Of a DNA stretch of 64,000 nt, positions 8,711-62,849 are shown piece after piece. The notes under the pieces were generated by a model. That model was not told where the DNA came from, ran no database searches, and saw nothing but the letters and a program-made list of their open reading frames with translations. Within the stretch, counting starts at the first letter, position 1. Each line of letters opens with the position of its first letter. This DNA comes from Vicugna vicugna (Eukaryota): the NCBI GenBank assembly GCA_013265495.1, contig MU057651.1, forward strand, positions 879,674-943,673. The letters are read 5' to 3'. The translations under genes were made by a program, and so were the position numbers.

Positions 8711-8809
8711 AAGACCCAAAATACCGAAACCAAAAATACTGAATAACCCCATAACTGTAAAGTAAATTGGTTCCTTAATTAAAACTTTCCTACAAAGAAG
8801 AAAAAGTGT

Positions 8810-9559
8810 TTTATAGTAGATGTTTTAATTTTCTTCTACACTGTTGGTTGGAATGTAGTTTGGTGCAGTCATTATGGAAAACCGTATGGAGATTCTTCAA
8901 AAAAGTGAAAATAGACTTACCCTATGATTCAGCAATCCCATTCCTGGTCATACATCTGGAGGAAACTCTAATTCAAAAAGATATATGTACCCCAATGTTC
9001 ATAGCAACACTATTTACAATAGCCAAGACAAGGAAGCAACCTAAATGTCCACTGACAGATGCCTGGATAAAGAAGATGTGTTATGTATATACAATGGAAT
9101 ACTACTCATCCATAAAAAAGAATAAAATCATACCATTTGCAGCAACGTGGATGGACCTGGAGATCATCATACTAAGTGAAGTAAGCCAGAAAGAGAAAGA
9201 AAAAAATACCAAATGATATCACTTTTATGTGGAATTTAAAAACAAACGAACAAACAAAATGGGACAAATGAACTTATTTACAAAACAGAGACAGACTCAC
9301 AGACATAGAAAACAAACTTATGGTAACAGTGGGGACAGAGAGTGAGGGGGGATAAATTAGGAGTTCGGGATCTGCAGATACTAACTACTACATATAAAAT
9401 AGATAAACAAGGCCCTACTGTATAGCACAGGGAACCATATTCAATACCTTGTAATAACTTATAATGAAAAAGAATATGTATAAATGAATCATTATGCTGC
9501 ACACCAGAAATTAACACAATGTTGTAAATCAACTATATTTCAATAAAAAATACTTTAAA
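8810..9559 (+). mobile_element. 5'-truncated L1 (ORF2 C-terminus and 3'UTR) with 16-bp TSD
   Basis: ORF 8806-9216 [22 protein letters not shown]...PMFIATLFTIAK...TMEYYSSIKKN is the L1 ORF2p C-terminus; TSD aaagaagaaaaagtgt at 8794-8809 and 9560-9575. Confidence 0.92.
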
Positions 9560-27559: not shown

Positions 27560-28800
27560 TGCGATGTGGACTTGGGAAACGCCCCGAAATGATAAGCATC
27601 CTGCTAGGGCATAATTTTCGAGACCAGCTCATCCTGCGTCCCGCGCACCAGCTCAGTACTGGACCAGGTGCACGCAGAGAGGCCGTTGTGCGGGAGGAGA
27701 GGGGTCGCAGGCTTTCGGCTGGGAAGTTGGAAGGTAGCCGGGGTCTTCAGACCGCCGGTGCGAGCGGTGGGGAGCTCCTAGGTGCACCCAGCGCCGAGGG
27801 GGAGGAGGGGCGGGAGGAGATGTGCGGTCCCTTTAAGACCCCAACGCTCGCTTCGCCGGAGGAGGGGGGTGCCGTGGGGGCGCTGCGTGATGGGAAAGTC
27901 GCCGGCTGAGCCTCACACTTTCTCCCGATTTCTTAACTTTCGGGTTGGGGGAGCGGGAGTAAAGGCCGACTTGCTGGGGCGGAGAGGGGCTGCCGGCTTG
28001 CAGCGGCTGCGTGCTCGCGGACTTCCCGCCCGCGCCGAGCGGCCGGCCTCTCCGGCCAAGTGGGGAGCGGGCGGCGGGCGGGCAGGTGGCCCCGGGCCGC
28101 CGCGCCCGCGCCTTGGCTCTGCCCCCGGGAGCCGAGCGAGCCGCTGCTCCCTCGTGGTGTGAGGGCGGTGATGTTTTTCCTCCCACCCACTTTTGAGTCC
28201 CCCCTCCTCCCTCGCGCACTCTAGCTCTCGCCACAACCTGCGAGCCCCAGACCTCGGAGGAGCGCCCCGGGGAGCTCCGAGCGCTTGCACGCGTGGAAGA
28301 CGGAGAAGGCCAGTGGCCAGGTCAGTGAGCAGTGCCCGGCGCCCGCTTCCCCTCCCTCCCTTTCCAGCCGTTGCACAGGTGGGCTATCTCCCCCCAGGGC
28401 AACCCGGACTCCCCACTCTGCCACCCCAACCCGCTCTACCGTCCGGGGCGCCGGACCCCCAGGCAGGTCGGGGTTGGGGGAGGGCTTGGATTCGAACTCA
28501 CCACTCGCCACTCCCGCTCGGCCTGCATATCTCCAGTCTCTGAAGCTGCTGGGAGGCCACTTGGGTAACTACCTAACGGGTTCTGCAGTCGCCTTAGTAA
28601 TCGTGTGTCCTGAGCCCTTTTCCTCGCTTGCTGAAGTGCCCTGGACCAGTGGGTGGTTCGTAAGTGCAAAAGTTAACGAAACAGGGCGGACAAGCGAGAG
28701 GCTCCTCTCTCCGCTGGACATGTCTCATTTTCCGGTCAGGACCACTGGGGTCAGAGTTGGAGACGCTAGGCTTAGGGAGTAACGCAGTATCGCCAGAACT
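27560..28800 (+). promoter_or_regulatory. CHRDL1: CpG island / CHRDL1 promoter
   Basis: Sharp switch to GC-rich, CpG-dense, repeat-free sequence with GC boxes (gggcgg) in an otherwise CpG-depleted window, 3.6 kb upstream of the first coding exon. Confidence 0.88.
28200..28320 (+). other. CHRDL1: CHRDL1 exon 1 (5'UTR; start approximate)
   Basis: Donor CAG|GTCAGT at 28320/28321 inside the CpG island; ...gacggagaaggccagtggccag resembles the recalled CHRDL1 5'UTR; TSS cannot be fixed from sequence. Confidence 0.7.
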
Positions 28801-30370: not shown

Positions 30371-31907
30371 CACCTTTCCCATTTGGAGACTTGGGGGATC
30401 AGCTTATTAAAGTAGGCTCAGGAAGAAGCTCACTGGGATGGGTAACTGTGTTAAACTGTCCATGGAAATGATTTGCTTCAAGGGAACTTGGTAGCTCTCA
30501 GAGGATAGAGATAGGCATTCTGAGTGATTGAAGGTGGACCAGAAGCTCATAGAGGGGACCAGCACATCAGGAGCCAGGCCTTTGGAAGGCTACGAACATG
30601 TCCTAGGAGAATTCAGTCCTTGTTTAAGAAGCAAGGAGGAAGTAGAGAATGCAGACCAGTGCTGCAAATCCCGGTTGATAGAATAAGTTATTCTCTATGA
30701 TCAGTTTTTTTTGTTACATACTCATAATTTGAAACAATGGATTTTAAATTATCTGGCCAATTTCATAGCATTTAAAGTAAGAGCTATGGCATCCACAGCG
30801 TGGCCCAAAGACAATTCAGTTCTCCGGAACGATCATCTTGCATTCCATCCAGCTCTTTATACTCAATATTTAGGTTGGACCCTCTGAAGAGATCGTTGAG
30901 CTCAGTTCCCATCCAAGGTTAACCCCAGTTTGAAATGTGGTGTTTCTCGAATTATTTAAATATTTTCAAATCACCCATTTGAAGAGTTTTGCCAACTCTA
31001 AAGTCTATAGAGATGACCTATGACTGGGTATGAGCTATAGCAAACCTTCTGTGTTCTAAGACTCGAAAGGTTTAAGATTTCCACCCCTTAGACTGGAAAT
31101 ACAGGTCTCATATTTTTAAGAGCTGTAGTTCCTTTTTTTTTTTTTGATGGCCTTTTGCATGGTAATGTAGTACGAACACATTACCTATTTAAATTTGCCT
31201 GATATTCCTTAAAAACGGCCCGTTTTAAATTGCTATTTCACAAGGGACTTCATGTGACAGGAATATGTCTGAACCATTCGGTGTTTAAATTGCATCCATT
31301 TGCTAAGTACGTCTATCTGTTCCAACATAGGTAGGCAAGCTGCAAATCCTTATAGATCTCATAGCAGACACAGGAGAAACATTGACCAATTTGTGCCTCA
31401 TCCCTGAAGGATTAATAATAATGGTAGTCTTAAAGCTCCAATCCATTAACTTTCATTTCAGAAATTGTTTGAGTCACTGCCCATTATTTTTATCTTGTTT
31501 GCCAAAGTAGCCGTTTTGCAAGCCCCAGTTTCCCTGTTCTCCCAAAGAAAACCTCTTGAGAAATCAACTTTTAATTCCCTTAGAAATGAGGGTTTCAAAA
31601 TTTCTTTTTATTTTCCTATCACTTGCCCGTAAGGATTTAGCCTTAGCGTTGGATAGGAATATATGTTCATCTGCTTGAATTTCCCCCTACGATCTTTGCA
31701 GGACAGGAGAGGCAAGTTCTCTTTCTTGGGGTGGGGGGGCGAGGGGGGAGGAACAATGCTTGCACCTATGTAAATTCGCCAGTGTTCTCCTCCCACCCCC
31801 ACTGCCCTCCAAGCAAGTTAGAAGCCTAAGCATCAGAGATCTCCACTGGTTCCAGAGAATCTGCTCTAAGTCTTTGTTTGTTTGTTTGTTTGTTTTCTTC
31901 CCAACAG

Positions 31908-31959
31908 CTTGAGTACACCAGGCCCTGAAAGTTTCAAGTTGCCCTTTGTAGTGGCCAGA
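31908..31959 (+). other. CHRDL1: CHRDL1 exon 2, 5'UTR part
   Basis: Acceptor ttttcttcccaacag| ending 31907, after a (TTTG)n tract. Confidence 0.7.
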
Positions 31960-32056
31960 ATGAGAAAAAAGTGGAAAATGGGAAGCATGAGATACATCTT
32001 TTCCTTGTTGCTGTTCTTTCTTTTCCTAGAAGGAAGCAAAACAGAGCAAGTAAAAC
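31960..32056 (+). CDS. CHRDL1: Chordin-like 1, first coding exon (signal peptide)
   Basis: [32 protein letters not shown] plus 1 nt (97 nt, phase 1); donor AAC|GTAAGT; matches the CHRDL1 N-terminus [31 protein letters not shown]. Confidence 0.96.
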
Positions 32057-33942
32057 GTAAGTGTCTTGAGTTTAAAAAAACAAGTTACTTTCTTGTAATT
32101 TTGAAAATGTGGTTATACTCTATAGGGATTGTGATTTAGCCCAAATGTGGCCGTGCCATCATTCTAAGAGAAGAAAGTGAATGTTACTGGTTTATGCATG
32201 AGTTGATAAAAGAATGAGAGCTTTGAATCGGGCCAACTAAATTTGGGGCTGTTTTTCTGATTATCATATAGTTTTCATCTCACAGAACACATGACACATT
32301 AGCCTATTTGCCTTTTCCTGTTCTAAACTGTACAAATCTCATTCCATTTTACGTAATTCTAGAAATATCTGACAGATGAGCTGGATTTTTTCCCAAATTT
32401 CAGACTCTTCAGCAAAGATTTTCAGTTTATGAAAAAGAATAACACAGGAAAAAAAAAAGAGCGAGAGAGAGAAAGAAAAAGTAAAGCAGGCTCTGCCTTG
32501 TTCCCTTTTGCCGGAAAACGAAGAAGGAAAAAAACCTTCACATGAACTGGATTCGGATGAAAAATCCTTTGAGGAAATTGAGATTCCAGGGACCGTGAGC
32601 AAATTGGATGCCATTTATTGAAAGGAACGTCCCCACAAAGCCAGGGAATATTTCTAGAAAGTCAGCGATCCGTGTGATGGGCTAACACATTGGAGAAAGC
32701 AGAGCGGCAGGAAAGGGGATAATTAACCCTCCTTGCGGCCACATTTGGGAGATTTATGAGTAGCTGTTGACATCTCTGCTCTTGTTAGGAGCCTTCTGCT
32801 GCCTTCACCCAGTGTGAGCCTTACCTTCTTTGGGCCACTTGCAGCCACCTCTGAGGTGGACCCTTGCTCTAAATTTGAAGGAAAAGCCATAGTCTGGTTC
32901 CCCTTTCTGGCTGCATCAAAAGAAGCACAAAGTGGAACTGGTCCAAGAGGGGCATTCTCTGCTCCACTGAACTTATTCATGAGAAGGAACTGAAAATATG
33001 CTTGGTAGGAGCTGAAACAGCATCTGAAGCCCATCACTTAAATATTTATCTCCTTTATCAGCACAAGTTCAATATATGAGGCCTGAGGCTGGCTGACTGG
33101 GAGAGCAGTGCCAAACCTATTCCACTGATACATGTGTTTCTATCCCACTGTGATTTTCATAGTAAAGTTAGTCCTCTTCCTGGGAGAAACAGTGCTTTTG
33201 ATTAGGCTTTTAAGCATGAGTGATCTGTGGTGATATCTAGTATGAGGGATACACAGAAGGAAGTTTGGCAGGGCACTGCCTCAGCAAGGAGTCTTGGATC
33301 AGCCTCTCCTCTTGTATTCCTCAACTGACCTCCTTCTCCTTCTACTCTGAATCCGTCTCAGAACCCTCTTCTTCCAGAAGTCCTCCTTGATTTAAGTGAA
33401 TGTGATAGAAAAGTTGCTTATCCGTTGTCAGCTAAGCTCACAAGCAGTTGGACTTAAAAACCTTCCTCTCTTAGGAAGAAACTTCCCTTCGGGCTCTATG
33501 GCATCAGGGTGAAGCTTGCAACATTTAGAGGACCATCTCTTCTGGGAAGCCTTCCATATTCATGAAGAATTAAGGCATATTATCCATGCAACTTAGAGCT
33601 TAATTGACAAACCAAAGAAAAATATGATTTAAAAACGATCAACAGACCCCAAACTATCACTCTCTAACATTTCCTACTGCCTGTGAGTTTGTCCCAAGCC
33701 CTTTTGATATTCAAGTGGTGTCAAAATGATTATGTAACAGGTGGTCTAGGGAACCAGTTCTAGTCTAGTCTTTCAGGCTTATAGTCAGATAACGAGGCTA
33801 AGGTCATGGTCATTCCCTGAATGAGCCACTCGGCATCATTCTGTGTGACCACATCCATGCTAACTCTCTTGAAGACATGTGCAAAGTTATCTCTACTAAA
33901 AGGAAACTCTCAAAGCGTATGCCCTATATATGTTGCCTTGAT

Positions 33943-51089: not shown

Positions 51090-51202
51090 ATTCAGAGACA
51101 TATTGTGTGTTCCAAGACAAGAAGTACAGAGTGGGTGAGAGATGGCATCCTTACCTGGAACCTTATGGGTTGGTTTACTGTGTGAACTGCATCTGCTCAG
51201 AG
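51090..51202 (+). CDS. CHRDL1: Chordin-like 1, second coding exon (first half of VWC domain 1)
   Basis: Acceptor tcttcttcctcatag|; (H)[37 protein letters not shown]; 113 nt, phase 1 to 0; donor GAG|GTACAA. Confidence 0.97.
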
Positions 51203-51836
51203 GTACAATCGCTCATGGCATGTGATTTCCCACTTTGCTCCTCAGCACATAGAGATGCTTTCAAGTGCCTAGGTGGCCAGGGAGCGTGAGTGATAAAAGC
51301 CTAAGAGAAGTTGAGAAGCAGATTATAAGGAAAAATACACATCTCCTGTCCTTTTTTTTTTGATAGCTTTTTGGCTTTATTTTCATGTGATCTCGTTTTT
51401 TGCTATAGACAGATACTGATGTCTCTTCGCCAAATGAAATAGGACATGGAAAAAGTGGAGTGGAAGAAAAAGCTCAATATAATGCCTGGATTGTAAGAGA
51501 AAATCACTTTTGAATACTGGTGCAAGACTGGCCTTTAAAAAGAGATTAGGACAGTTCGTAAATTGGTTCATTGGAAGAGCGTACTTTATGTTGTTTCAGC
51601 CAATAACTATAATTAGGATTGAGGTTGTGAAACCTTGGCCTGTTTCTGGTGAGGATTAGAGTTCTCTTGGCTTGACTTTGGCTCTTGTCCAGTCACGTAA
51701 AGAGGCATTTGAACAGCTTAAATGCCATCTTTGCAATAGACAAAACAGGTAGTCCCATCTTCTTTCCATGGCCTTGACCCAGGACCACAACTATGGCCCA
51801 TCTTTCTGAATAAGCTTCTACTGTCAAGGACTAGGC

Positions 51837-52560: not shown

Positions 52561-53805
52561 TATGGTTATTATTTTTATTAATCTATTAATTCTAGAATAG
52601 AAATCAGTATAAAGCATTAAGGAGGAATCAGTTTAGACCTCAGCCAGGTTTCTGATGTGCTTTGGTGATCTCGGGACACGACCTGGCTCTGAGGAGTGAC
52701 ACGCAAGGAGGCCCTATGGTGTTTCCAAATGCAACACTCAAAAAATTTATTCTAGAAAGTACATGAGAAAAGAAAAAGGGTTGTGGTATAAGGTGATTCA
52801 GATTTGGATGAAAGACATCTGCCTCTTTAAATGGCTAAGACAGTTATTAAATAGAGCATCTAGAGACTGATTAACTGCCTGGTATGGCATGATTGTGTCA
52901 GATTCTTGACCCAATCCTTTGGAAATGGACAGCTAACCCTTGGGGGCTGAGGCTTTGCTGTCTGCAGGGCAGTGAAAATGTTAATATGATCCCAGTGCCA
53001 GCGGTTCAAGTGCTAGGCATCTTCTCTTTCTCCATCCTTTTCATCACCCTCTTCCCCCATCAGAACCTGACAGATACAGGTAACCCTTGCTCCCAATAAA
53101 TTATGGATGGAAAATGTTAATGCAAAATTGATTTCCAAAGCCTTCTTTTGTTCTAGGAATTGTTGAAAGCAGTCAAAGCTAAAGATCTTGTAATTGCAAA
53201 TCAGGCAGGGACCCAGTCGCCCCCTCCCCTAGTCACACTAGCTAATCAGCTCAATTCCAAACTCTAACTTGTTCTCAGAAAAATTTTGACCTGAAAGGAA
53301 ATGAGGAGAGGAGGCACTCAACTTACTGGACTAAAGCAGAGTTCTGTGGAATTCAGGATCCATGTGCTAGGGTAATATCTCTTTGCCCAGGGGTGGGTAG
53401 CAGCTTGCGGGACCCATCACTCATGATCCCTTTTTTCCATGCTACTGGGCAGGTGATTATGAAATCAGACTAGGCTCTTGGAGAAGACGTGCAGAGCTGG
53501 GGGATGGTAGAAACATCACAGAGCCAAATCAGAAGAAGCCTCCCACTAGTTGTGGGAGGCTTTGAAAACTGGGGCAGTAGTGATCCCAGCCTTAGAAAAA
53601 TATGCCAATAAGCTATCATCCAAACCCAGCGGAGGTGCTAGTGATGAGAAAAGGGAAGAAAATGCTGATTTCATTCAGTTTCTCGGGAATGCATTATTCA
53701 CCGTCTGGGTGAGTCCCCGCATGACTGTTTCCCAAACTGGCATAATCCCAGTGACCTATGAAAGACACTTATTTTTTGTTGGTGGTGTTGCCTCCTCTCT
53801 TTCAG

Positions 53806-53899
53806 AATGGGAATGTGCTTTGCAGCCGAGTCAGATGTCCAAGCCTTCATTGCGTCTCTCCCGTGCATATTCCTCACCTTTGCTGCCCTCGCTGCCCAG
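53806..53899 (+). CDS. CHRDL1: Chordin-like 1, third coding exon (second half of VWC domain 1); gene continues beyond the window
   Basis: Acceptor cctcctctctttcag|; [31 protein letters not shown] plus 1 nt (94 nt), ending in the VWC CCPxC motif; donor CAG|GTAAAC. Confidence 0.97.
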
Positions 53900-54705
53900 G
53901 TAAACCAGCCTGCCTCTTTCTTCCCAGCTGTGGTTCTCCTTCCTCCCTCTTCCACCCAATCCACTCCGTCTTCCTAATTCCCTGGAAAGGAAACTTCCAG
54001 ACAGAAATCACAATAGGATACTTTTAGGTAGCCTGCACTGGCCCCTAAATACTGTTTATAGCCCGAGGTGGGCACATTCTAGGTTCTAACAAGTTATTGA
54101 GTTCCAAGTAACAGATTTTCGCTGGGCTTTTAATATTTGAAGGTGAATGTCAACTCGGGGAAGGGAATTGTGGCCCAGAGATTTTCTGCCATAAACAGCT
54201 TCTTCCTGCCATGAGCAGTGGACACCAGGGGAGTTGTAGCACAGAGACATGTGTCCTCCACAGTTAGTGCTGGGACTGCACCTGAGTATAGCTTCTAAGT
54301 GATAAGGGGCTGTTTATAAATCCAAGGAGCTGAACCAGTGAGGTTTATGACAGTATAAAGCTGCCTGCCTGCTGAATGGTCCCCTCCCCCAGACTGTACA
54401 GTTAGTATGTATACATCGTTCAGATCAATGCTAAGGGGGAGGCAGACAGAGTTTTTCACAAGGCTGTTAGGACATCTGTCTTCATGGTTTGCAGCTACAG
54501 TGTTTGTATGAGGCAGAGGCTCCCTCAGTGACACTGTTCATGTCTGACTGGGGCCTGGCTCCCATGCCAGAGGCGTGCAAACACAGAATGATTCAGAGAA
54601 TGCCTGTGGGCCTGACAGCAGTCTTAGGAAAGGCTAAGTGACAATCTTGGCATCTGGGCAGTAGAAACTTTGTAGTCCTATAAGTCGGTTCTGATTGCCT
54701 CAAGG

Positions 54706-61270: not shown

Positions 61271-61769
61271 TGAAATATTAAAGCCATCTCACTTTTCACT
61301 TTATCTCTTTGAGTATCTGCTGCCATCCTCAGGCTTGCTGCTGTTGCTATCATCCATGTCAGCTCTCCATTGCTCTCTGCATTTCTCCTTTTGTTCTTTT
61401 CTGAATTCTGTATTCACTTGCCTCTTGGATCTTATTGAAAAAGATCAATTCCTTTTAAATAGTAACAGTAGTTAGCATATTCTTTTCCTCCACTAAGGGA
61501 ACTACGAAAGCCGTAGTTTACAAGGGCTGTTTCTTTGCCTGGAAAAGATTGGTATATAGAAAAAACAAAACAAAAGCAAAAAACAAACAAACAAACAAAA
61601 AACCCCAAAAAGCCTCTGAGTCCAGAGCTATCCAAAAGCATGAGGATTCTGGAATGCTGATCTCTAGATAACAGAGGTTTTACTTAATTATCATTGTTAT
61701 CATTGTTAGGTTTCTTATACTGATTGTTGACAGGTCACCATAGAGATGTTCACTATTGATCAGTATGTT

Positions 61770-62347
61770 TTTTTTTAATGTAAGTAAGGAAAGTCTTTAA
61801 TTTTTTCTGTTTTCTTTTTCTTTTTTTCTCTTTTTTAAATATTTAACAAATGCTTTACTGTGAAAGTAGCTTTCTCGATGTCCATAATACAGAAACACTT
61901 TCACAATCCAATAAACAACTCGAAAAGTTTTACAGCACAAGAGTAAATGTAAGTTTCCAATTTGAATGAGGTCTAAAATACACAAATCAGGACGCTGATC
62001 ATACAAAAGGATAATATTCAAAGGAAGCTCACAGTTCAGAATCATCCTACTGTCTTTGTGGAAAACCCACAGCAAATTTTTTTGTAATAATTGGGTATAA
62101 CAGTATTATAATTCTAATGAACAAGTTAAATCAGGGATCTCTAAATTTTGGAATCACACTGTTAATCAACTACAAACAAATATTAGCCCACATCTATCAC
62201 CAATGACTCAGATGTTTCTTTCTAATGAATTGACCGTTACATTTCCAAAGTTCTTAAATGGCCATCAGACCACAGAAAGACACTTCTCTAGGCTCCTGCT
62301 TGAAACCAACAGCTTCAGCAGACTGCTGGCCTTGATTCAGGACCAAA
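61770..62347 (-). pseudogene. snoRNA retroposon: SNORA2B-like RNA, 3' trailer and poly(A), with 16-bp TSD
   Basis: Perfect direct repeat tattgatcagtatgtt at 61754-61769 and 62348-62363; T-tract (minus-strand poly(A)) at the left end; snoRNA begins 1 nt inside the right TSD. Confidence 0.9.
62210..62346 (-). ncRNA. SNORA2B: Box H/ACA snoRNA copy, SNORA2 (ACA2) family, most like SNORA2B
   Basis: Minus strand TTGGTCCTGAATCAAGGCCAGCAGTCTGCTGAAGCTGTTGGTTTCAAGCAGGAGCCTAGAGAAGTGTCTTTCTGTGGTCTGATGGCCATTTAAGAACTTTGGAAATGTAACGGTCAATTCATTAGAAAGAAACATCT (137 nt); two hairpins, H box AGAGAA (62289-62284), ACA (62215-62213) 3 nt from the end; closely matches recalled SNORA2B. Confidence 0.88.
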
Positions 62348-62849
62348 TATTGATCAGTATGTTGATCACTGTTCATGTCTCTACTGACTGCCTTCTTACC
62401 TCTCAGACCACTTTCACTGTCTTCCATGCTATATTTCCATTGTTTTCCTCATACACTTGGTCCTTGAACACTGTGCAGGGTATAAAGGGTTAAAACTTCT
62501 TCAGGAACGTGACATCCAACTTGCCTTCTGCCAGGTGAGGTGATCTTTGTCTCTGGTAAACCCTGGGGATTTAGCTGCTTTTTAAAAAGAATGTGATTTC
62601 CTCTTAGTATTCTAGAAGCCCTTATGCCATATAAGAACAAGACTTTTAGAAAACTGTGACTTTCTGTCATGGTAGAACAGAACTCTTCTGTTTCTTTCAA
62701 TGGACATTAATCAAACCTGGCCTCACACAAAGGTGAAGAAGGTGGCATATCCTTGAGGGATACCGAAAAGCTCCATTTGTCCCAAATAAATCTTCCATGT
62801 GCTTTCTGTATTTAAGAAACCTCCGCCATTACAATCACTCTTCTGGGTT

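Follow-up and report, generated by a model that had tools for sequence, protein, structure and literature searches.

A SNORA2-family snoRNA retroposon in a CHRDL1 intron of Vicugna vicugna, probably copied from an earlier retroposon

Here we describe a retroposed small nucleolar RNA (snoRNA) of the SNORA2 family that lies in an intron of CHRDL1 in Vicugna vicugna, at 61754-62363 of a 64,000-nt window on contig C600 of a 2.03-Gb assembly in 12,405 contigs (positions are those of the window unless a contig or locus is named). The element is very probably a second-generation Type-2 snoRNA retroposon (snoRT), copied not from KANSL2, the host gene in which the snoRNA originated, but from an earlier retrocopy on contig C6656. 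The evidence for this is a nested tail in which the insertion marks of the C6656 copy are enclosed within those of the copy in the window. The pedigree, from the KANSL2 intron to C6656 and from there to the CHRDL1 intron, is unusually legible, since the daughter holds the target-site duplication (TSD) and flank of its mother, and because the order of the two nested insertions is fixed, the element makes a clean phylogenetic marker.

The element and its parent on C6656

The element is bounded by TATTGATCAGTATGTT, a perfect 16-mer that is present at 61754-61769 and again at 62348-62363, and which is the sole direct repeat not of low complexity in the searched interval 61500-62600; we calculate that 1.1 kb should contain about 1e-4 such 16-mer repeats by chance. 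Between the two copies, the minus strand of 62210-62346 matches the Rfam family RF00410 (SNORA2/SNORA34) at 146.8 bits (gathering score 70, E = 1e-28), spanning model positions 1-137 of 137, and this is the only Rfam match in the entire window. The snoRNA has the order hairpin-hinge-hairpin-tail, with the H box AGAGAA (ANANNA type) in the hinge and ACAUCU, that is ACA plus 3 nt, as the tail, while two pairs in the Rfam alignment are non-canonical, both in the upper stem of the 3′ hairpin. SNORA2 snoRNAs have their targets in 28S rRNA. Between the snoRNA and the duplication there is a lone base, 62347; it is a T in the RNA sense, and because the same T precedes the snoRNA in the KANSL2 intron (as it does in several other copies, T-TTGG) it was templated. 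The retroposed RNA evidently began 1 base before the start of the Rfam model, without untemplated bases. A first-pass annotation of the same DNA had read this region as a retroposed SNORA2-family snoRNA with a mature 5′ end and a long 3′ extension, a complete 137-nt H/ACA RNA placed 1 nt from a perfect 16-bp TSD, and had proposed a covariance search of 62210-62346; the search returned SNORA2 at the level of the family, the only level that Rfam gives, and the whole of that description holds.

Beyond the trailer that follows the snoRNA, the stretch 61770-61836 is A-rich yet composite, and is no simple poly(A) tail. The poly(A) end of the first-pass annotation is there as an A-rich tail, of which only A7 is new. 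In the order of the RNA, the parts of the element are as follows.

62348..62363, minus strand: TSD on the 5′ side of the element (AACATACTGATCAATA in element sense), a perfect 16-nt repeat of 61754-61769
62347, minus strand: templated T before model position 1, the base with which the retroposed RNA truly began, shared with the KANSL2 intron
62210..62346, minus strand: SNORA2/SNORA34-family H/ACA copy, 137 nt (RF00410, 146.8 bits)
61837..62209, minus strand: trailer, 373 nt, ultimately the 5′ part of the KANSL2 intron; matches C6656 at 96% and the KANSL2 copy at 86%
61802..61836, minus strand: A-rich tract inherited from the A-tail of the parent retrocopy; aligns to the tail of the C6656 copy (locus L002) in a global pairwise alignment
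61786..61801, minus strand: copy of the parent's 3′ TSD (ATTAAAGACTTTCCTT) with a poly(A)-signal hexamer; alignment to L002, within a 22-mer match
61777..61785, minus strand: 9 nt from the parent's 3′ genomic flank (ACTTACATT; parent ACTAACATT); alignment and 22-mer search
61770..61776, minus strand: the element's own short poly(A), A7 (up to A9 counting the first two A of the TSD), by direct reading
61754..61769, minus strand: TSD on the 3′ side of the element, a perfect 16-nt repeat

The L1 endonuclease prefers the site TT/AAAA. Against this consensus, the window insertion site TC/AACA agrees at 4/6 positions, the site of the C6656 parent (TT/AATA) at 5/6, and that of another copy, L015 (TT/AAAA), at 6/6.

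The window and C6656 copies are separated by a Kimura two-parameter (K2P) distance of 0.036, against 0.109-0.145 for the next five copies and 0.119 for the KANSL2 copy, and the identity of the window copy is 96% to C6656 versus 86-89% to KANSL2. In a maximum-likelihood (ML) tree of 16 rows and 513 columns, rooted on a divergent copy on C9280, the two form a clade with support 99/99 on a stem of 0.033, with branch lengths of 0.030 for the window and 0.0075 for C6656; the copy on C8245 joins the KANSL2 copy (97/96), and most remaining forks are unresolved. Part of the shared stem may be time that the C6656 copy spent in the genome before it was copied.

It is the tail that gives this relation its direction. 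The C6656 copy has a TSD of its own, AATAAAGTCTTTCCTT directly 5′ of the snoRNA and AACAAAGTCTTTCCTT past the A-rich tail, and in the global alignment to C6656 the window tail runs, after the trailer, through the A-rich tract, ATTAAAGACTTTCCTT, ACTTACATT, A7 and finally its own TSD. A 22-mer of C6656 made up of TSD and flank has one match in the window, at 61777-61798 (-), with 2 mismatches, and 0/100 shuffles matched. Since the string is a two-sided TSD at C6656, whereas in the window element it stands solely within the 3′ end, the copying ran from C6656 to the window. The direct template named by the first-pass annotation, a 3′-unprocessed KANSL2 intermediate, is contradicted by the C6656 TSD and flank in the tail and by the 99/99 clade, and its account of the trailer, as KANSL2 intron from just downstream of the snoRNA, is right for the ultimate origin (86%, on contig C5495) and wrong for the immediate template, which would be C6656.

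A fairly young insertion would fit both the K2P distance of 0.036 and the still-perfect 16-bp TSD; with a substitution rate of 2.2e-9 per site per year, which is assumed here, that distance would mean an age of less than roughly 10 Myr. Among the sampled words of 61600-62500, a share of 0.73-0.89 is present in each of 14 public runs (out of 24 listed) with four organism codes (A-D), figures that are word shares and not junctions.

Proposed route, alternatives and fate of the insert

The route that we propose has three steps. In the first, RNA of a SNORA2-family snoRNA from a KANSL2 intron would be trimmed at its 5′ end to the boundary protected by the small nucleolar ribonucleoprotein (snoRNP), while cleavage and polyadenylation would set its 3′ end 373 nt beyond the snoRNA, some 15 nt past an AGTAAA in the intron; this snoRNA-capped polyadenylated RNA would then be retroposed many times by LINE-1 machinery, once into C6656. 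The KANSL2 source is established, and the RNA steps are presumed. In the second step, sense transcription would pass through the C6656 copy, with an H/ACA snoRNP again blocking 5′-to-3′ trimming at the snoRNA boundary, and the RNA would run through the old A-tail and the 3′ TSD, which fortuitously supplies a signal of the AATAAA type. Cleavage would fall 19 nt past that hexamer, 9 nt into the C6656 flank, and the resulting RNA, about 0.6 kb long, would be polyadenylated and inserted by LINE-1 in intron 4 of CHRDL1, where a 16-bp TSD was formed. That the C6656 copy was itself transcribed and recopied may be taken as established, to the extent that nested sequence can establish it. In the last step the insert, antisense to CHRDL1, could not be processed from the host intron and would be inert.

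The hexamer before GTCTTTCC is AATAAA in the 5′ copy at C6656, AACAAA in the 3′ copy and ATTAAA in the window, and the majority state at each position of these three versions gives AATAAA. The A7 of the window begins 19 nt past this hexamer, and at C6656 the GU/U-rich TGAAGTGCTTTTT comes after the cleavage point. RNA 3′ ends that lie 15-19 nt after poly(A)-signal hexamers point to snoRNA-capped, mRNA-like polyadenylated intermediates. The "3′-unprocessed" RNA of the first-pass annotation, correct in being 3′-extended and polyadenylated, would be better described as having been cleaved at a poly(A) signal and then polyadenylated.

Several points weigh against this account. The 3′ hexamer at C6656 is at present AACAAA, and AATAAA is a reconstruction from the three versions. 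An alternative alignment with a 13-nt gap puts the A7 of the window on a genomic A7 further along the C6656 flank, and if that alignment is right, the A7 was copied from the flank and not added at the proposed cleavage point. The branches since the split are unequal, the 18 differences between window and C6656 being 12 window-derived, 5 C6656-derived and 1 ambiguous, an asymmetry that is not significant (binomial p = 0.14). The transcription of C6656, the ends of its RNA and the use of the hexamer would all be read from DNA fossils. Finally, a Pfam search of 132 open reading frames within +/-10 kb of C6656, 7 of them with matches, found no sense-strand host gene around it. What these surroundings hold, on the opposite strand, is a KRAB-box exon (93.5 bits; L019:2399-2557) some 7 kb upstream and a sub-threshold match to the S1 domain, and, on the same strand, an olfactory-receptor pseudogene 1.3-2.3 kb downstream (L022:1583-2610), which is frameshifted, with 7tm_4 and 7tm_1 pieces over three plus frames. 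Our guesses for the source of the read-through are divergent transcription at a KRAB zinc-finger (KRAB-ZNF) promoter and an exon of the receptor gene lying further upstream. Faster evolution or editing of the window copy was also considered and rejected, given p = 0.14 and substitutions without an editing-like bias.

A first-generation retrocopy, made straight from KANSL2 pre-mRNA or an intron intermediate, would account for the mature 5′ end and for a trailer homologous over 371 nt (86%) to the KANSL2 intron sequence that follows the snoRNA. It is very unlikely in view of the 96% identity to C6656 versus 86-89% to KANSL2, the 99/99 clade and a tail that holds the C6656 TSD and 9 nt of its flank (the AATAAAGTCTTTCCTTACTAACATT string), which the KANSL2 intron lacks after GTTAAATAT. 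The extension of the copied stretch beyond the parent element could instead suggest that the C6656 locus was duplicated into CHRDL1 at the DNA level, in a segmental or repair-mediated event, but the copy begins exactly at the snoRNA 5′ end without the parent's 5′ TSD, gains a fresh A7 tract 19 nt past a poly(A)-signal hexamer, and is bounded by a 16-bp TSD at a TC/AACA site, features that typify target-primed reverse transcription. On alignment, moreover, the sequence flanking 61754-62363 in the window shows no homology to the C6656 flanks, and we give such a duplication almost no credence. Another possible parent is a lost, polymorphic or unassembled duplicate of the C6656 locus, in which case the copy would still be second-generation; the longer window branch (0.030 > 0.0075) and the fragmentation of the assembly into 12,405 contigs speak for it, but the assembly has a single copy of the C6656 3′ flank and the asymmetry of the branches is not significant (p = 0.14), which makes it improbable that the parent was anything other than the C6656 copy.

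Protein comparison confirms CHRDL1 as the host gene, and the insert is antisense to it. By tblastn, the 445-aa CHRDL1 reference finds plus-strand exons at about 28171-28318, 31906-32058, 51092-51205 and 53803-53900, the last two of which encode the halves of a VWC domain.

51092..51205, plus strand: CHRDL1 coding exon, first half of VWC domain 1 (Pfam VWC positions 1-38, 19.1 bits, under the cut-off; tblastn)
53803..53900 (3′ boundary approximate), plus strand: CHRDL1 coding exon, second half of VWC domain 1 (Pfam VWC 25-57, 20.7 bits; tblastn)

Every named relative of the frame at 51092-51205 is a chordin-like protein 1. The exon at 53803-53900 is the last CHRDL1 exon before the insert within the window, and for reference residues past about 173 (of 445) tblastn found no exon within the window, which puts the insert in the intron that follows the fourth of the coding exons detected. 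The VWC halves, the named relatives and the tblastn matches agree in this with the first-pass annotation, which had placed the insert in CHRDL1 intron 4.

The insert is probably an inert fossil, dead on arrival, since an element antisense to CHRDL1 would not be processed from the host intron. The H/ACA features of the window copy are still intact. The window-derived changes, 3 in the 137-nt snoRNA (2.2%) and 9 in the 371-nt trailer (2.4%), are spread evenly over both and therefore give no sign of constraint. An antisense or independent transcript in CHRDL1 might still make the copy a live snoRNA gene whose product is assembled into an H/ACA snoRNP: its covariance score of 146.8 bits is close to the parent's 146.2 and above the 137.1 of the KANSL2 copy, and its H and ACA boxes are intact. 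We consider this unlikely, since the copy is antisense to the only gene detected, has changed as much in the snoRNA as in the trailer and has two non-canonical stem pairs, and since "dead on arrival" is the term applied to such snoRNA copies in Weber 2006 (PMC1687206).

Comparison with known systems

Type-2 snoRTs were defined in Weber 2006 (PLoS Genet, PMC1687206), and on that description the window element, with its mature 5′ end, intron trailer, A7 tail and 16-bp TSD, is by sequence both a member of RF00410 and a Type-2 snoRT. The trailer, 373 nt long, corresponds at 86% to the KANSL2 intron right after the snoRNA and excludes the exon some ~2.9 kb further on. The element resembles the cryptic-poly(A) sub-case of the Type-2 snoRT in its mature snoRNA 5′ end, partial downstream intron and A-rich tail, in a TSD of about 14-16 bp abutting the ends, and in a 3′ end just past a poly(A)-signal-like hexamer (PMC1687206). 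It differs from the type described there in that its template was very probably an earlier snoRT, not a host gene, and in carrying the A-tail, TSD and 9 nt of foreign flank of that parent snoRT. A literature search, which took in Weber 2006 without its supplementary figures, found no snoRT with the TSD and flank of a parent snoRT in its tail. The human retrogenes ACA2c and ACA2d, as listed in Table 1 of Luo & Li (Nucleic Acids Res 2006/2007, PMC1802619), are also intronic L1-type retrogenes of the same snoRNA family (ACA2 = SNORA2); unlike the window copy, they are found in human and at other loci.

The nested tail also recalls the 3′ transduction of L1 and SVA elements, in which, as outlined in Weber 2006 (PMC1687206), read-through to a downstream poly(A) signal carries along source flank and thereby identifies the source. 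Unlike in such transduction, the window copy carries 9 nt of flank only, the signal lies within the source's TSD, and the mobilised unit is a snoRNA retrocopy without a promoter of its own. The known SPA long noncoding RNAs (lncRNAs) have box C/D snoRNAs of the Prader-Willi locus as caps and measure tens of kb. From these the intermediate proposed here would differ in its H/ACA cap, in its length of about 0.5 kb and in being known from DNA fossils only. With SPA lncRNAs, which are 5′ snoRNA-capped and 3′ polyadenylated (PMC9896466), it would share a snoRNP-protected 5′ end and a 3′ end at a poly(A) site.

What we describe is a variation on a known theme, that of master copies and 3′ transduction, and involves no new mechanism and no new class of RNA. 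Retroposition is a documented route by which snoRNA genes move and multiply. If it is read correctly, the nested structure proves that a promoterless retroposed snoRNA copy was transcribed, processed at its 5′ end at the snoRNA boundary, processed at its 3′ end and mobilised again, and the ends of the copies amount to DNA-fossil evidence for H/ACA-capped polyadenylated RNAs.

The KANSL2 source and the copies across the genome

The genome was searched separately with the 373-nt trailer and with the snoRNA, and the counts are lower bounds: the trailer has at least 16 places and the snoRNA at least 15, for a total of 17 loci, made up of at least 16 snoRNA-plus-trailer places (window included) and a further snoRNA copy on C9881. 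The first-pass description of the trailer as non-repeat is contradicted by these places. Seven trailer matches outside the window are full-length or near-full-length.

C6656: 96% identity to the window trailer
C4614: 90% identity
C8245: 87% identity
C5495 (C5495:5732093-5732466): 86% identity over 371 nt, the KANSL2-intron copy
C2026: 85% identity
C3299: 79% identity, reaching trailer position 267 only
C850: 74% identity

In every copy without 5′ truncation the snoRNA lies directly upstream of the trailer. Among the loci L002-L016, 11 of the 15 are above the Rfam gathering score, at 112-152 bits, and the 5′ ends of 10 full-length retrocopies fall within about 2 nt of model position 1. All copies that reach the 3′ end (14/14) stop at an identical GTTAAATAT, 15-16 nt past AGTAAA, a variant poly(A) signal, after which they continue into A-rich sequence or an A-derived microsatellite. 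An automatic search for TSDs (16 nt or longer, at most 1 mismatch) could be applied to 11 copies, with L008, L009, L013, L014 and L016 left out for lack of the boundary motif; it found TSDs of 16-19 nt in six (L001, L002, L004, L006, L010 and L015) and none in L003, L005, L007, L011 and L012 (5/11, one of these being the host-gene copy). Shorter candidates seen by eye in L003, L007 and L012 are excluded from the count. An all-against-all BLAST of flanks for parent-daughter pairs returned the copies' own duplications and one 14-nt match at chance level, and is an insensitive test, since with the low-complexity filter it missed the pair L001-L002 as well.

Because the copy on C5495 sits in a KANSL2 intron without a tail or duplication, we take it on sequence grounds to be the original source. 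Past GTTAAATAT it runs into unrelated sequence that is not A-rich, with no A-tail and no TSD. Two KANSL2 exons that encode zf-C3Hc3H domains (PF13891) enclose it on the minus strand; the peptide of the first-domain exon is 94-100% identical to mammalian KAT8 regulatory NSL complex subunit 2 proteins (a PDB sequence search with the KANSL2 exon peptide gave 0 matches), and by tblastn the KANSL2 protein finds nine exons on C5495. The snoRNA, at C5495:5732468-5732597 (-), starts 84 nt after the exon 5732681-5732782, which opens the first of three snoRNA-bearing KANSL2 introns; the source paralogue is the one there, and the two introns that follow have one further RF00410 match each (71.9 and 109.9 bits). 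Homology to the trailer stops at C5495:5732093, and ~2.9 kb more intron separates this point from the next exon at 5729222, while the retrocopies carry only the 5′ part of the intron and end past a poly(A)-signal-like hexamer. The search of the trailer against the same genome that the first-pass annotation had suggested does, as it expected, find the KANSL2 intron downstream of the snoRNA.

The snoRNA that now resides in KANSL2 is 130 nt long and lacks 7 nt (ATGGTCT) that every retrocopy has kept. These form part of the 5′ arm of the internal loop in the 3′ hairpin, and the paralogue in the next KANSL2 intron retains a near-identical arm; with the gap, the KANSL2 snoRNA still scores 137.1 bits against RF00410. 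The gap could be a real loss of the guide pocket or an assembly error. In a predicted whale KANSL2 of 375 aa, the last residues (..HCLTRIFLL..) match read-through from the exon into the snoRNA-bearing intron, and this gene model, a weak lead, hints at a KANSL2 isoform that terminates in the intron.

Seven copies (L009-L015, on contigs C11790, C5515, C12404 (two), C6399, C3156 and C3091) join trailer positions about 1-172 directly to 283-373, so that ~110 nt (positions about 173-282) are missing. They share substitutions, such as GGATCC versus AAATCC in all long copies, old and young, and form one clade in the ML tree with support 81/92. Canonical splicing was rejected as the source of the gap, its borders, GATTC(T)/..GAACTG...TAAAAC/TTTTTGAG, having no GT-AG on either strand; the skipping of a stable hairpin by reverse transcriptase is not supported, the 131-nt region folding at -22.3 kcal/mol (z = -0.59) with 56/200 shuffles as stable. 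Since the long form is that of the KANSL2 intron and of both older and younger long copies, the short form would most simply come from a separate master that carried the deletion; an extinct KANSL2 allele could conceivably have supplied it instead. A more speculative idea, which we hold to be doubtful, is that the KANSL2-intron SNORA2 snoRT forms a small self-propagating family resembling short interspersed elements (SINEs), with retrocopies as masters (C6656 for the window, and a master with the 110-nt deletion for the seven copies), and that retrocopies now supply a guide function lost by the KANSL2 parent in its 7-nt deletion. If true, this would catch in the act Weber's "safeguard" scenario, in which a retrocopy takes over the guide function.

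Among the other loci, C9881 (L024:997-1093) has the Type-1 form, with the snoRNA 5′-truncated at about position 44; 2-3 extra bases lead on to a long A-tail and the 16-nt TSD ATATTTGTAGATAGGT. The stretch on C9280 (L016, 8446818-8447143) is 67% identical and colinear with snoRNA and long trailer; it has no A-tail, no TSD and no Rfam match at E <= 0.1, and might be an ancient copy, or else something different. On C2026, a U2 snRNA-like fragment in the opposite orientation (L006:1439-1534; RF00004, 41.2 bits, under the 46-bit gathering score, E = 1.8e-5) lies directly after the 3′ TSD of the retrocopy, and a third copy of the 15-nt target sequence GAATCTCCCTTCCTT comes after the fragment, so there may have been two insertions at one target site. 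The flanks of copies (L019, L020, L022, L023 and L008) contain six matches to tRNA models, at 32-54 bits, which are probably tRNA-derived SINEs. In the window itself, a 145-aa open frame at 8779-9213 (+) is a candidate for the C-terminal part of a LINE-1 ORF2 protein.

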